Below, piece by piece: positions 10,003-16,049 of a DNA stretch of 64,000 bases. Position 1 is the stretch's first letter. Each line of letters begins with the position of its first letter. The stretch is from a bacterium (lineage in GTDB: Bacteria; Desulfobacterota; Binatia; HRBIN30; CADEER01): contig JAUIGL010000006.1 in NCBI GenBank assembly GCA_030430165.1, positions 5,412 to 69,411 of the forward strand. The letters run 5' to 3'. Below the pieces are notes generated by a model. That model made no database searches, was not told the origin of the DNA, and worked only from the letters and a program-made list of their open reading frames with translations. A program made the position numbers and the translations under genes.

Positions 10003-10602
10003 TTAGTCTTCGAGGGCTCCGCCTTCGATCCACTCGCGAATCGTTCGCACCTGCTCGTCGCTGAGCGGCGCACCGAAGCGCGGCATCTGGTCGCCAAGGC
10101 CTTCCCCCGGAGGGCCCGCGACCTTGCGCAACAGGAAACTGTTCTCGCCGTCGAATGGCTCGACGAGGAGGAAGCCCAGCTCGACTGCGCGTTGCGTCAC
10201 CGGCTCGACATTGATCAGCGCGTCGTAGGAAACGTCGGCCGTGAGATCGAGATCCGAGGCTGGCACCGCACCGCCATGGCAGCCCGCGAAGGCACAACTC
10301 AGGTCGAAGATCGCCTGCACCTCGGCGTACGACGGCGTGCCGTTGCTCTCACAGCCTCCGAGGGCGGCGTTGACCGCGGTCACCAACTCGCTGATCGACA
10401 CCGAGCCATCGCTGTTGGTGTCCAACGCCTCGCACTGTGAGACGTCGATCGCCCCGAGGTTGATGTTGACCCCGCGGATCAGCTCGTTGACGCTGACCGT
10501 GCCGTTGCCGTCGCAATCTCCAGGGCAAACGCCCTGAGCAAGGGCCGCGCTCGATGCGGTCACGACGAAGACGAAGAGCAAAGCTGCGCGAATAATCGAC
10601 AT
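10003..10602 (-). CDS. Small secreted protein: four-Cys dockerin-like module plus a CX4CH planctomycete-cytochrome-c-like (PSCyt1-like) domain.
   Basis: Start at MSIIRAALLFVFVVTASSAALAQG (signal peptide). Module CPGDCDGNGTVSVNELIRGVNINLG...DTNSDGSVSISELVTAVNAALGGC at nt 10351-10527. SCAFAGCHGG has its His codon at 10276-10278. PFDGENSFLLRKV...MPRFGAPLSDEQVRTIREWIEGGA follows. Confidence 0.7.
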   Translation of the reverse strand: MSIIRAALLFVFVVTASSAALAQGVCPGDCDGNGTVSVNELIRGVNINLGAIDVSQCEALDTNSDGSVSISELVTAVNAALGGCESNGTPSYAEVQAIFDLSCAFAGCHGGAVPASDLDLTADVSYDALINVEPVTQRAVELGFLLVEPFDGENSFLLRKVAGPPGEGLGDQMPRFGAPLSDEQVRTIREWIEGGALED

Positions 10603-10824
10603 GGGCGATCCTTTTTCCGGCCGGAAGTGAGCGAGACGCCGGCAAGGGCCGGCTAGCTGAACCTCTAAAATTACTACCGGCGGGCAAGGCACTGTCAATG
10701 CGCCTCGCGCCCGAGCGGTCGAATCCGGCTTGCGGCACGGCGATCCGACTGCGCTTGCGGTTGGCAGACGATCGGTGGGGCCCCCTTGCCGCGGCCCGGA
10801 GGCAGCAGCTATGGGCAACCACGA

Positions 10825-11631
10825 ATGGCGCTTTCGGAGCTGAGGTGGGCAATGGTGCCGGTGGTGTTCGTCGCCGCCTGGGGCGGTGGCTGGATCGCAC
10901 TGCGATCGGCTCGGCAGAGCGGTCTGAGCGGACTCGGCAAGGCCAATGCGTTCGCCTCCGGCATCGTCCTCGGCACCGGCCTCCTACATATGCTCCCCGA
11001 GTCCGCAGCCACCCTCGGTCGCGCCATCCCCGACTATCCGGTCGCATTCCTGCTCGCCGGCGCGGCGTTTCTCATGCTCCTCCTGATCGAGCACGTGCTG
11101 CTGGCGCAACGCGGCCACCACCACGGCGAGTTGGCGCCGCACGGCCAGCACGAGCTCGCCGGCGAGCTCGCAGTCCACGCCGTGGAGAGCCAGATGTCGG
11201 CCTACGCGCTGCTAGCGGCGCTGTCCGTGCACTCGGTATTGGCCGGAATCGCACTCGGGGCACAGTCGACCCTCGACGGCGCCCTCGCCGTGCTGATCGC
11301 AGTGCTGGCGCACAAGACCACCGAAGGCTTCGCACTCGGCGTCAGCTTGGCGCGCAACCGCGTGCCGCCGACGACTGCCTGGCCTCTCTTGGTCGGCTTC
11401 TCGGCAGCGGCGCCGCTCGGTATCGGCCTGGGCGCGCTGGCGACCGCCAGCGCGAGCGGCATCGGCGAGCTTTTCGAGGCCTCTTTCTCGGCGATCGCCG
11501 CCGGCACCTTTCTCTACATCTCCAGCCTCGACATGATCGGCGAGGAGTTCAGTCACGGCGACCAGCCCTTCGCCAAGTGGTGCCTCGCCGTGACCGGCCT
11601 GGCGATTGCCGCCGCCCTCGCCGCCGTCTGA
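10825..11631 (+). CDS. ZIP-family divalent metal transporter
   Basis: Polytopic protein. GLLHMLPE, a His-rich loop (QRGHHHGELAPHGQHE) and HKTTEGFALGVS are typical of ZIP/ZupT proteins. Confidence 0.8.
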   Translation: MALSELRWAMVPVVFVAAWGGGWIALRSARQSGLSGLGKANAFASGIVLGTGLLHMLPESAATLGRAIPDYPVAFLLAGAAFLMLLLIEHVLLAQRGHHHGELAPHGQHELAGELAVHAVESQMSAYALLAALSVHSVLAGIALGAQSTLDGALAVLIAVLAHKTTEGFALGVSLARNRVPPTTAWPLLVGFSAAAPLGIGLGALATASASGIGELFEASFSAIAAGTFLYISSLDMIGEEFSHGDQPFAKWCLAVTGLAIAAALAAV

Positions 11632-11803
11632 CCCCCGGGCGATCCGCCACTCAGCGCCTACAGGTCCCTCTGGAGCGCCATTCCCAGCCGGACGCCCTGC
11701 GACAAATTGTCATCGCCTCGGGTTCTCGCTACTGTTAGAAACACGTATATGCGGCTCTAAACAAAACGCCGTTTCGCGGGCCGCACGGAGGAGGAAACCG
11801 AAT

Positions 11804-13780: not shown

Positions 13781-13802
13781 AGCCCCATCGGTCGGAAACG
13801 AG

Positions 13803-13839
13803 AAAGGGCCCCGGCGGAATTCGCCGGGGCCCTTTTTTT
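13803..13839. terminator. Bidirectional intrinsic terminator
   Basis: Palindrome gggccccggcgGAATTcgccggggccc (13806-13831) is flanked by aaa on the left and ttttttt (13833-13839) on the right. It sits between convergent stop codons. Confidence 0.7.
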
Positions 13840-13856
13840 CGCGTTGCGCTTCCCGA

Positions 13857-16049
13857 TCAGTCGGCTGCCGCCAACGAAGCGCAGCCCTCGAGGGCGGCGC
13901 GCACGCCGAGCACCAGCTCGTTGACCGCCACCCTTCCGTCGCCGTCATTGTCGGCCGCCGGGCACAGCGAGAGATCGGCGCCGAGCGAGATGTTGACCGC
14001 GCGGGTGAGCTCGCTGATGTCGACCTCGCCATCGAAGTTGCAATCGCAGGGGCAGGACACTGCCAGGGCCAGGATGCCGCCGACCGGGCCCGACAAGCCG
14101 TAGGGCGCATAGACCACACCGTCGACGATCGCCGGCCCGCCACCGATCGGCGCGCTCGTCGCGATCTTCTTGAGGAAAGTGCCGTCCGCCCCGTCGAGCA
14201 CATGGATGGCGCCGGGGTCACAGGACATCGATTGGCAGGCGCGCCGGCAGGTGGTGTTGTTGCCGCAGTCGCCGGTGAACATCACGCCGTTGGCGACCGA
14301 CGTATCGGCCCAGGTGTGCTCGAAGGGCTGGGTCCAGAGGGTCATGCCGTCGACGATGCTGAAGGACTGCAGATGATCCGGTGATTGCGACGGAGCGACG
14401 TCGTGCAGGCTGGCGAAAATCGCCCCCGAGGAGTAGGCGATCGCGCCGTTGAACAGCCCCCACGAAGCCAGGCCCGGTGACACCGGAGTCGGCACTACTT
14501 CGTTGGTCCAGAAGATCGAGCCGTCGCTCGCGTCGAGGGCGTACAGCGTCCCGTCCTTGCTTCCCGACACCACCAGATCGACGCTCAGGCCCGACTCGTC
14601 GGCGTCGACGAAGAGCGGCCCGTTGAGAAAACCGAAGTCGTGAAACACGCCTTTCGGACGGCACTCGCCCTGCTGACAGTCGTTGTCGTCGCGGCATTCG
14701 TTTGCCTGGTCCATCGGGCAAAAGCCGAACTGCTCGGGAGGCTGAACCCGATTCTTCCACTTGAGCTCGCCGGTCGCCGCATCGAAGGCGAAGAGCGAGT
14801 CGGAATCGCCGATCGACGGAAAGGTGAAGCAGCCGACGGTGTTGGCGTAGACCGTTTCGCCATCCGGGCTGGTCGCCGGCCGCGCCGTGATCCCGGCACC
14901 GCGCCCGATGATACATTCGCCGTCGTTGGGACAGTCGCTGTTCTCGTCGCAGACGACCGAGGTGTCGCTGTCGCAGACCATCTCCGGGGTGGTGATATAG
15001 CGCCAGAGGACCTCTCCGCTGTCGAGATCGAGCGCCGTCAGCTGCCCCTCCGACGCGCACGGCGCGTCCGACGCCGAGGCCAAGCCGACGAAGACGCGGC
15101 CGTTGGCAACCGTCGCCGCGCCCCACATCTCGAGCTCGGGGACCTCACTCAGCACCGTCCGCCACAAGACGCGTCCGTCCTCGGCGTCGAGACACTCCAC
15201 CGCCCGATCGACGGTGATGATCAGACGCCCGTCGGCGGTCAGGGTGGGGCTTCCCTCTACCCCGAGAAACGCCGCATCGGTCAGGTGATCCCACACGACC
15301 TCGCCGGTTTCCTGATCGAGAGCGTAGACCTTCTTGTTCCAGGAGGTCACGAAGACCTTGCCGAAGCCGACCGCCGGGGTCGACGTCACCGCGCGCAGCC
15401 CGCTCGTGCCCGGCTCGTTGCCGATGTCGAACTGCCACTTCACCCCGAGCGCAGCCGCATTACCGGCATCGATCGCGTCTTCGACCGGCGAGGAACGATG
15501 GTTCGAGTTGTTGTAGCCGTGCGAAGGCCAGCCGTGCGGCACACAGGTGAGAACCAGCTCGTCCTCGTCGACCGCCCCTTCGCTGGTCTCGGCCGTCACC
15601 GACACGGTCACCGTCTTCATCTCTCCGTCGATTGCGACGACCGCGGTAGAGCCGTCGGTGCAGGCCTGTTCGCTCGCCGGCAAGAGAGCCGAAAAATCGA
15701 GCTCGCCGGAGTCGGCGCCGCTGACCGTCGCGCTCGCGGTGGTGACCTCCTCGGGCTCGCACGCCTCCAGATCGGGATCGTCGTTGTACAGACAGACATC
15801 GATGTCGAACGAACAGGAGCCGTTCACCCGGCCGTCGAGGTCACAGCCGGATTCGCCGTCGAAACAGCGCACGGCCTCCTGCGGCACCGGTGCCGAGGGG
15901 TCGAACGGGGGGTAGTTGAGCTTCATCAGGGTCGAAGCGAACTCGGCGTGACAGTCGGTCTCGGCCGGCCCCCCGCCCGGAATCTGCAGGGCAGACGCCC
16001 CACTTGCGCCGATTACCACGGCAGTCAGGATGGATATCGCGAACTTCAT
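13857..16049 (-). CDS. Secreted PQQ-like / quinoprotein-like beta-propeller protein with Cys-rich insertions and a C-terminal four-Cys dockerin-like module.
   Basis: Signal peptide MKFAISILTAVVIGASGASA. WPSHGYNNSNHRSSPVEDAIDAGNAAALGVKWQF resembles the N-terminus of quinoprotein dehydrogenases. Repeated G-x-V-x-W blades are present. Module CPCDCNFDGEVDISELTRAVNISLG...DNDGDGRVAVNELVLGVRAALEGC at nt 13881-14054. Confidence 0.75.
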   Translation of the reverse strand: MKFAISILTAVVIGASGASALQIPGGGPAETDCHAEFASTLMKLNYPPFDPSAPVPQEAVRCFDGESGCDLDGRVNGSCSFDIDVCLYNDDPDLEACEPEEVTTASATVSGADSGELDFSALLPASEQACTDGSTAVVAIDGEMKTVTVSVTAETSEGAVDEDELVLTCVPHGWPSHGYNNSNHRSSPVEDAIDAGNAAALGVKWQFDIGNEPGTSGLRAVTSTPAVGFGKVFVTSWNKKVYALDQETGEVVWDHLTDAAFLGVEGSPTLTADGRLIITVDRAVECLDAEDGRVLWRTVLSEVPELEMWGAATVANGRVFVGLASASDAPCASEGQLTALDLDSGEVLWRYITTPEMVCDSDTSVVCDENSDCPNDGECIIGRGAGITARPATSPDGETVYANTVGCFTFPSIGDSDSLFAFDAATGELKWKNRVQPPEQFGFCPMDQANECRDDNDCQQGECRPKGVFHDFGFLNGPLFVDADESGLSVDLVVSGSKDGTLYALDASDGSIFWTNEVVPTPVSPGLASWGLFNGAIAYSSGAIFASLHDVAPSQSPDHLQSFSIVDGMTLWTQPFEHTWADTSVANGVMFTGDCGNNTTCRRACQSMSCDPGAIHVLDGADGTFLKKIATSAPIGGGPAIVDGVVYAPYGLSGPVGGILALAVSCPCDCNFDGEVDISELTRAVNISLGADLSLCPAADNDGDGRVAVNELVLGVRAALEGCASLAAAD

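Follow-up and report, generated by a model that had tools for sequence, protein, structure and literature searches.

A predicted cytochrome-fused copper monooxygenase and its neighbours point to a probable oxidation system outside the cytoplasm in Binatia

Within a 64-kb stretch of contig JAUIGL010000006.1 from a Binatia genome (hereafter the window, with an even G+C content of 65–69%), four adjacent open reading frames (ORFs) lie at 10003..10602 (−; gene A), 10825..11631 (+; gene B), 11804..13780 (+; gene C) and 13857..16049 (−; gene D), exactly as described in an earlier reading of the DNA made without database searches (the sequence-only reading), which had proposed them as an extracellular copper and redox gene cluster. 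Sec-type signal peptides could be read in the products of A, C and D, and B encodes a transporter of the ZIP family. The domain assignments of that reading (a CX4CH haem domain, the ZIP transporter and a propeller) survived profile and structure searches. Judged from sequence, C, D and cytochromes such as A point to an undescribed oxidation system outside the cytoplasm, in a lineage (Binatia) known from genomes only, with methylotrophy and alkane oxidation among its noted traits (PMC8262859). Homologues of these genes came from metagenome-assembled genomes (MAGs) labelled Candidatus Binatia, ‘Deltaproteobacteria’ or ‘Thermodesulfobacteriota’.

Gene C encodes 658 residues, with a strong ribosome-binding site GGAGGAGG before its ATG at 11804. 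A signal peptide (residues 1–26) is followed by a dockerin-like module (nt 11885–12067, from profile and sequence reading), a PSCyt1-like haem c domain (nt 12086–12397) with C107-X4-C112-H113 at 12122–12142 and a candidate ligand at M175, and a predicted two-domain copper monooxygenase core of the PHM/DBH type (nt 12479–13777), recognised from its AlphaFold2 (AF2) model and ligand motifs. The model had a predicted local distance difference test score (pLDDT) of 75.8, with most of the core above 80, and its best 30 Foldseek matches in the PDB were all human DBH (4zel) or rat PHM entries (E 7e-9 to 2e-6, probability 1.0, template modelling score normalised to the target of about 0.5–0.6). In an alignment of 33 C homologues, six residues (H307, H308, H408, H484, H486 and M640) were invariant, lying in the motifs GSHHLL, NLHYTNP, FGHMHKRG and DDDMCN. 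Predicted ligands of the CuH site are H307-H308 (12722–12727) and H408 (13025–13027), and those of the CuM site are H484-x-H486 (13253–13261) and M640 (13721–13723, within DDDMCN). Alignment with hhalign to a PHM core sequence placed the five histidines on H107, H108, H172, H242 and H244 of PHM, whereas the sixth ligand, M640, was paired with PHM by motif only.

Homologues of C number more than 160, and a profile of the core alone recovered 235 proteins at E ≤1e-3 among 1.84 billion representatives clustered at 50%. No functional name or precomputed Pfam domain was attached to any of the 120 C-family proteins listed, a C-family profile searched with HMMER against all PDB sequences returned nothing relevant, and Pfam matched just one of the 33 family members to Cu2_monooxygen, at E 0.48 only. 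The distant relative P0159, which matches the core profile at E 3e-15, scores 41.8 bits on Cu2_monoox_C, above the cut-off of 23, and also carries Dockerin_1, the CX4CH domain and the same ligand motifs as C. Even relatives at E 1e-10 retain the copper ligands and the cytochrome-domain Cys, Cys, His and Met, and a DEMCN-type motif is common to C and its distant relatives. The assignment of C as a copper monooxygenase by the sequence-only reading is thus upheld by fold matches, invariant in-register ligands and the transitive link through P0159 to Cu2_monoox_C, although not by any Pfam family match of its own, and from the model and these motifs we place its family in the PHM/DBH superfamily, as a bacterial branch that has diverged very far. 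C is a predicted copper- and haem-binding monooxygenase.

Modelled C shares with PHM and DBH (PF01082 Cu2_monooxygen, PF03712 Cu2_monoox_C) the two-domain beta-sandwich fold, the order of ligands (CuH HH...H, CuM HxH...M), similar motifs (HHLL, LHY, HMH and DDMCN) and a predicted location outside the cytoplasm. In contrast to those enzymes, C is bacterial and escapes detection by HMMER against PDB or Pfam, has an upstream fused cytochrome c domain instead of ascorbate dependence or a DOMON domain, carries Cys-knot insertions and a dockerin-like module, and is partnered across its family not by PAL, as PHM is, but by a PQQ-like propeller and an amidohydrolase. All characterised enzymes of the PHM/DBH type known to us are eukaryotic and ascorbate-dependent. 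Our literature searches, several of them too unspecific to help, turned up no account of PHM-like enzymes fused to a cytochrome in bacteria, and the Binatota genome paper makes no mention of the family. Each of the three building blocks (catalytic fold, cytochrome domain and propeller) is of a known kind; new are the fusion of cytochrome and monooxygenase, the invariant CX4CH and the set of partners. One full-length member of the C family (49% identity) was found, with an Amidohydro_2 gene nearby, in L016, a Candidatus Limnocylindria MAG with a Chloroflexota-type label, which suggests either horizontal spread or a binning error.

The cytochrome domain links C to gene A. Residues ~95–198 of C and ~92–197 of A fit the pattern of PSCyt1 (‘Planctomycete cytochrome C’, PF07635) in length and in sequence (F...C..CH...L.L...G.P..S.L..K....MP...L....I..WI..GA), including the invariant Met-Pro that would give the sixth haem ligand. 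They differ from PSCyt1 in their first cysteine, which stands two residues further upstream to give C-X4-C-H, invariantly so in the versions fused to a PHM-like core. Among the 33 C homologues, 19 matched PSCyt1 (best E 3e-5), and both cysteines, the histidine and M175 were invariant. CX4CH takes the place of CXXCH in both A and C and in every fused relative, including P0151, P0159, P0182 and the DUF4215-type proteins, and is kept in the four A orthologues read. Some unfused paralogues near C homologues have a plain CXXCH at the same position, and this exchange at one site fits a haem c site with a movable first cysteine. It could be argued that C is no redox enzyme at all, its C-X4-C-H being a haem-free disulfide or metal site and its PHM-like core a binding or structural module: both domains score below Pfam thresholds, pLDDT falls below 50 around residues 108–123 of C, and the first cysteine is displaced with respect to canonical CXXCH. 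Low pLDDT is, however, expected where a cofactor is not modelled. We consider this alternative highly improbable, given that the six copper ligands and the cytochrome Cys, Cys, His and Met do not vary in 33 sequences and persist to E 1e-10, and that CX4CH is an accepted haem c motif, two of which bind haem in cytochrome c3 (PMC10454114, PMC10734462).

Gene A encodes 199 residues and comprises a Sec signal peptide (residues 1–23), a dockerin- or EF-hand-like module (residues 26–84, nt 10351–10527 on the minus strand; EF-hand_1 27.6 bits, cut-off 25.4) and a PSCyt1-like cytochrome c domain (residues ~92–197, nt 10012–10329; E 4e-36 to a hidden Markov model (HMM) of the cytochrome domain and 0.0026 to Cytochrome_CBB3), with C103-X4-C108-H109 at nt 10276–10296. 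The sequence-only reading was correct in describing A as the module plus the CX4CH domain of C (motif C103..H109 in A, C107..H113 in C), and by sequence the two domains belong to one family. Its suggestion that A is a detached electron-carrier half of C did not hold: the domain of A has ~35% identity with each of the C domains and falls in a separate clade, which rules out a recent detachment and marks A as an old paralogue. A orthologues were excised by hand from the loci of C homologues; a protein-collection search with the cytochrome domain of A returned only a near-identical protein, few exact words being shared, and was uninformative.

Convergent to C, gene D encodes a protein of 730 residues with a signal peptide, an N-terminal Cys-rich beta domain (residues ~25–170, nt 15540–15977, from profiles), an eight-bladed propeller resembling those of pyrroloquinoline quinone (PQQ) alcohol dehydrogenases (PQQ-ADH; residues ~172–664, nt 14058–15536, from Pfam and the AF2 model) and a C-terminal dockerin-like module (nt 13875–14054, from profile and sequence). 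Its earlier description as a secreted PQQ-like propeller ending in the module was borne out by PQQ_2 (PF13360, E 3e-27) and PQQ (PF01011, E 8e-19), both above thresholds. The AF2 model (pLDDT 82.9, predicted template modelling score 0.85) retrieved PQQ alcohol and methanol dehydrogenases first from the PDB with Foldseek (E about 7e-26 to 1e-21), with BamB after them, and from this model D has the PQQ-ADH fold. The curated PQQ-ADH model TIGR03075 scored 87.3 bits on D (cut-off 480) and the ‘acido-empty-quinoprotein’ model TIGR04528 a similar 73.8 bits (cut-off 650). At least 296 clusters make up the D family, under automatic names such as BamB, ‘PQQ-binding-like’ and ‘polyvinyl alcohol dehydrogenase (cytochrome)’, and a D-family profile searched against PDB sequences matched mostly designed propellers, as well as tetrathionate hydrolase. 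D471 and K498 were invariant in 24 D homologues; in an hhalign alignment of the family to MxaF (probability 96%), D471 falls on the catalytic D303 and K498 on R331, whereas the pairwise HMMER alignment misplaces the catalytic Asp owing to the Cys-rich insertion. D thus has in common with PQQ alcohol and methanol dehydrogenases (quinohaemoprotein ADH 1kv9/1kb0, MxaF and XoxF) an eight-bladed fold and invariant residues aligned with the active-site Asp and Lys/Arg, and differs in its extra N-terminal Cys-rich domain and C-terminal dockerin-like module. The same Cys-rich domain occupies the N termini of three PHM-like proteins (P0182, P0151 and P0203) and one cytochrome, at locus L087 (E 2e-17 to 1e-9). 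Its pattern is TDCHAEF...CFDG..GCD.DG..NG.C.F.V.VC, and it belongs to no Pfam family. The Cys- and Asp-rich motifs quoted by the sequence-only reading as being of one style in C and D are present, but the strict form tested occurs in D alone within the window.

Among loci anchored on C, those of close relatives (67–71% identity) had the whole block collinear, housekeeping genes included, in the order acyl-CoA synthetase, P450, 84-aa gene, A, ZIP, C, D, PNPOx and Rrf2, often running on into 2-oxoglutarate dehydrogenase genes, and collinearity of an entire region in close genomes shows only common descent. The commonest neighbour of the C family, which the sequence-only reading could not have seen in the window and overlooked, is an Amidohydro_2 gene (PF04909), adjoining C in 11 of 13 distant loci and found at L001:12040–13548, at L006:6514–7953 and in 9 other loci. 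Its product has ~480–500 residues with a twin-arginine motif after an N-terminal extension of ~55 residues, a signal for twin-arginine translocation (TAT), and no NCBIfam model exists for it. Among the five close genomes, three carry this gene between C and D, and the window and L002 are without it; in L001, L004 and L013, where C, Amidohydro_2 and D are adjacent, a cytochrome–PHM-like protein, a propeller, the amidohydrolase and cytochromes are all encoded together. Unfused PSCyt1-like proteins are encoded near C homologues in L009, L016, L021 and L022; in L007, C has a gene for a RoxA-like cytochrome c nearby.

These data could be taken to mean that no functional cluster exists, gene order having been inherited in one Binatia family while the products act separately as a zinc or iron importer, a secreted oxidase, a secreted propeller and a periplasmic cytochrome. 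The block is collinear with acyl-CoA synthetase, P450, PNPOx, Rrf2 and 2-oxoglutarate dehydrogenase genes at 67–71% identity and dissolves in 13 of 13 more distant C loci, its genes are split between the two strands, C and D being separated by a terminator, and the module shared by A, C and D occurs at least seven times in the window. Loci anchored on D speak against such independence. From four long contigs and 79 metagenome loci (83 in total, with D-like genes of 30–63% identity), scanned by HMM for the PHM-like core, the cytochrome domain, ZIP and the partner Amidohydro_2, ten distinct loci had a cyt(CX4CH)–PHM-like gene directly beside the D-like gene, at D identities of 36–44% (L029, L030, L051 with two copies, L052 (= L053), L054, L060, L071, L076, L084 and L107). 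In an eleventh, L080, the PHM-like gene stands one gene away, with a five-haem cytochrome gene between. The intervening product (L080:316–2676, −), which separates the close-family monooxygenase gene from the D-like gene, is a ~780-aa protein that has five CXXCH motifs and whose C-terminal repeat is rich in Cys. The pairs are mostly in tandem on one strand and nearly abutting, and their PHM-like proteins belong to other subfamilies than C (~810–960 aa with DUF4215, or ~710 aa), most of which keep SHH, NSHAFN, SHTH and DEMF.

Among 26 distinct D loci having at least 8 kb of flank, six were positive. For a rough comparison, ~400 kb of control sequence, made up of the window and the flanks of every C-anchored locus, contained one extra PHM-like gene, a density that, with two immediate neighbours per locus, predicts well under one chance pair in ~80 loci. 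Genes of the C kind and of the D kind are therefore neighbours in several distant lineages. Proteins like A occur within such clusters: in L051 and L052 they consist of a signal peptide, the dockerin-like module, a Thr-rich linker and a cytochrome domain, with CX4CH in L051 and a CX5CH-like motif in L052. Partner-type Amidohydro_2 genes stand beside D-like genes in L037 and L103. An association of propeller genes with c-type cytochromes and a hydrolase likewise characterises the pva operon of PVA-degrading bacteria, where a PQQ dehydrogenase and a hydrolase are accompanied by cytochrome c as electron acceptor (PMC11644497). With adjacency recurring in 11 distinct loci, often in tandem and in other subfamilies, with A-like proteins inside these clusters and with an N-terminal domain common to D and PHM-like proteins, we consider it distinctly unlikely that the genes merely descended together. 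Synteny thus answered in two parts, the four-gene set being confined to the clade of 67–71% identity, whereas pairs of C-kind with D-kind genes and of C-kind with cytochrome genes recur.

We assign A, C and D to a single system because genes for cytochrome–PHM-like proteins, PQQ-fold propellers, TAT-exported Amidohydro_2 and c-type cytochromes are linked pairwise across lineages. The proposal of the sequence-only reading that the three secreted proteins act together therefore gains independent support from adjacency, from A-like proteins and from the shared N-terminal domain, but not from the ZIP gene or the shared module. On balance, the explanation that best accommodates the evidence as a whole, and which we think somewhat probable, is that C, A and D form a redox-coupled oxidation system outside the cytoplasm, with ZIP excluded. 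The haem c domain of C would stand in for the ascorbate of animal PHM and DBH, taking single electrons from periplasmic cytochromes such as A and handing them to CuH, while CuM would activate O2 and hydroxylate a C–H bond of the substrate outside the cytoplasm. D would most likely oxidise the resulting alcohol, or another, and return electrons to the cytochrome pool, so that hydroxylation and dehydrogenation would be redox-coupled; alternatively, D may process the product without redox chemistry. In most relatives, the TAT-exported Amidohydro_2 hydrolase would add a third step, and the dockerin-like tags may hold the proteins on a surface scaffold.

Known systems offer parallels to this logic. 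The cytochrome domain of cellobiose dehydrogenase (CDH) feeds lytic polysaccharide monooxygenase (LPMO), and PQQ methanol dehydrogenase (MDH) with cytochrome cL has been proposed to feed particulate methane monooxygenase (pMMO). The likeness lies only in the route, in which a haem protein passes single electrons to an extracytoplasmic copper oxygenase and a product dehydrogenase can supply them. Folds and families are unrelated, and here the predicted haem domain is on the polypeptide of the copper enzyme itself.

Several observations weigh against a joint system of A, C and D. In 13 distinct C loci of 48–56% identity, neither ZIP, nor an A orthologue, nor a D-like gene was found within 8–10 kb, and outside the close clade no A orthologue came to light. 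A terminator separates the convergent genes C and D, which therefore do not form one operon here. The partner Amidohydro_2 has no copy anywhere in the 64-kb window, and we presume that it was lost or relocated in this genome. The catalytic part of C (the C-terminal 430 residues) had no Pfam or NCBIfam match, and its cytochrome domain scored 16.7 bits against PSCyt1 (cut-off 22), all copies of this domain in the window falling below the Pfam threshold. Finally, in HMMER and hhalign alignments to MxaF, its vicinal C103–C104 disulfide ring is deleted in D, and R109, E177, W243 and N261 find no match in the D family, in contrast to PQQ-ADH. D may accordingly bind neither PQQ nor Ca, and may be no dehydrogenase.

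The losses in D lend themselves to a second scheme, modelled on PHM and PAL, of hydroxylation followed by cleavage. Here C would hydroxylate a carbon next to a heteroatom, drawing electrons from the general periplasmic cytochrome pool, and a non-redox partner (Amidohydro_2 in most lineages, elsewhere D as a cofactor-less hydrolase or lyase) would cleave the unstable product. PAL, the lyase partner of PHM in PAM, is itself a beta-propeller. The scheme would account for Amidohydro_2 being adjacent to C in 11 of 13 distant and three of five close loci and beside D-like genes in L037 and L103, for the PQQ- and Ca-site residues missing from D, for the ‘empty quinoprotein’ model scoring almost like the PQQ-ADH model, and for the match of the D-family profile to tetrathionate hydrolase, a propeller with a hydrolase name. 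However, the best structural and sequence matches of D are true PQQ dehydrogenases, its family shows no variation at the positions matched to the catalytic Asp and Arg/Lys331, and extra cytochromes cluster with D-like and PHM-like genes, which fits electron traffic better than hydrolysis. We therefore regard hydroxylation followed by non-redox cleavage as rather unlikely, and prefer the redox-coupled system of C, A and D.

If the haem of C does feed CuH, the family would offer a direct, electrochemically addressable electron route into this class of copper oxygenases, many members of this putative bacterial PHM/DBH-type superfamily having a cytochrome c domain built in. Electron transfer from CuH to CuM is still debated, and such proteins would aid mechanistic work on it as well as suit biocatalysis, as hydroxylases driven by a cytochrome or an electrode. 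Their partners (a PQQ-fold propeller, a TAT amidohydrolase and extra cytochromes) outline what may be an unexplored extracytoplasmic oxidation pathway in Binatia.

A, C and D share a module of ~60 residues with two D-x-[DN]-x-DG-x-V loops and four cysteines, whose scores are EF-hand- or dockerin-like (Dockerin_1 on C reached E 0.23, below threshold). The duplicated, predicted Ca-binding loop-helix of ~60 residues resembles that of type I dockerins of cellulosomes (PF00404), from which the copies in A, C and D differ in having four cysteines and scores under the Dockerin_1 cut-off, and this organism is not a cellulosome producer. The sequence-only reading had taken the shared module as evidence for a link among the three proteins; with at least seven copies in 64 kb the module is generic, and its presence provides no evidence that they belong together. 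It is a general, genome-wide tag of the secretome, which may matter for co-localisation. In P0040, P0114 and P0116 the dockerin-like module replaces the Cys-knot loop of the second PHM-like domain (alignment columns ~630–740), and this position away from the N terminus shows the module to be mobile within the C family. A bolder version of the redox-coupled system would place its modules on a scaffold as a self-sufficient oxidative machine of the cell surface, an oxidative counterpart of the cellulosome running without cytoplasmic reductant, which we find quite improbable. On this version, equally doubtful in its particulars, C would hydroxylate an insoluble or polymeric substrate, D would oxidise the alcohol, dockerin-tagged cytochromes would return electrons to C and the amidohydrolase would cleave the oxidised product.

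Gene B (10825..11631, +) encodes a ZIP-family divalent-metal transporter with a His-rich loop, as the sequence-only reading had called it (PF02535, E 7.9e-38, 130.9 bits against a cut-off of 35.1). Its inclusion in a copper and redox theme was not sustained, ZIP genes being absent from 13 of 13 distant C loci and from all 83 D-like loci, and present only in the closely related collinear genomes; as a component of the system it was rejected. The metals imported by ZIP proteins are Zn, Fe or Mn, and their delivery to the cytoplasm would not metallate an exported enzyme. From its distribution, B is probably a neighbour by descent and no part of the system, and for this gene alone the best reading is that inherited gene order, without shared function, explains its position.

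Between ZIP and C, a gap of 172 nt holds no terminator, so read-through from one to the other is possible. Between C and D lies a bidirectional intrinsic terminator (13806..13839) with a perfect 11-bp stem (GGGCCCCGGCG/CGCCGGGGCCC) and tails of T7 on the plus strand and TTTCTC on the minus strand; an Rfam search of 9300–16800 gave sub-threshold, weak hairpin-type matches at this terminator only. In the divergent intergenic region of A and ZIP, 71–97 nt upstream of the start codon of A, a promoter-like element (10673..10699, −) has TTGACA ~16 nt upstream of TAGTAAT. The string ACTACCG-N13-TGTCAA is kept there in five of five close loci and, read on the minus strand, would provide a −35 TTGACA for A. 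A sigma-70 consensus scan called no promoter, this element included, and it may instead be a regulator-binding site.

Elsewhere in the window, the first 630 nt (1..630, +) hold the final 209 codons, at the 3′ end, of another PHM-like paralogue, which matches the superfamily HMM at E 2e-22, ends ...TTEDEMFILMGGFY* (also given as ...VTTEDEMFILMGGFYVDNR), has a dockerin-like module in a loop and leaves the window at its left edge, ~11 kb from C. Further predicted secreted proteins with dockerin-like modules are encoded at 1965–4253 (−; Pfam Dockerin_1 E 9.5e-7, above threshold), at 40484–42484 (−; from sequence) and at 58798–60171 (+; from sequence, with an FG-GAP/VCBS-like look), the first two with repeat linkers of great length, rich in Thr, Pro and Arg. 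A gene of ~84 codons (9701–9952, +), flanked by the P450 gene and A, encodes a product that matched no Pfam family and that reads as ribbon-helix-helix-like with an Arg/Pro-rich tail; in all three close genomes for which a gene table was consulted, an 84-aa gene occupies this place.

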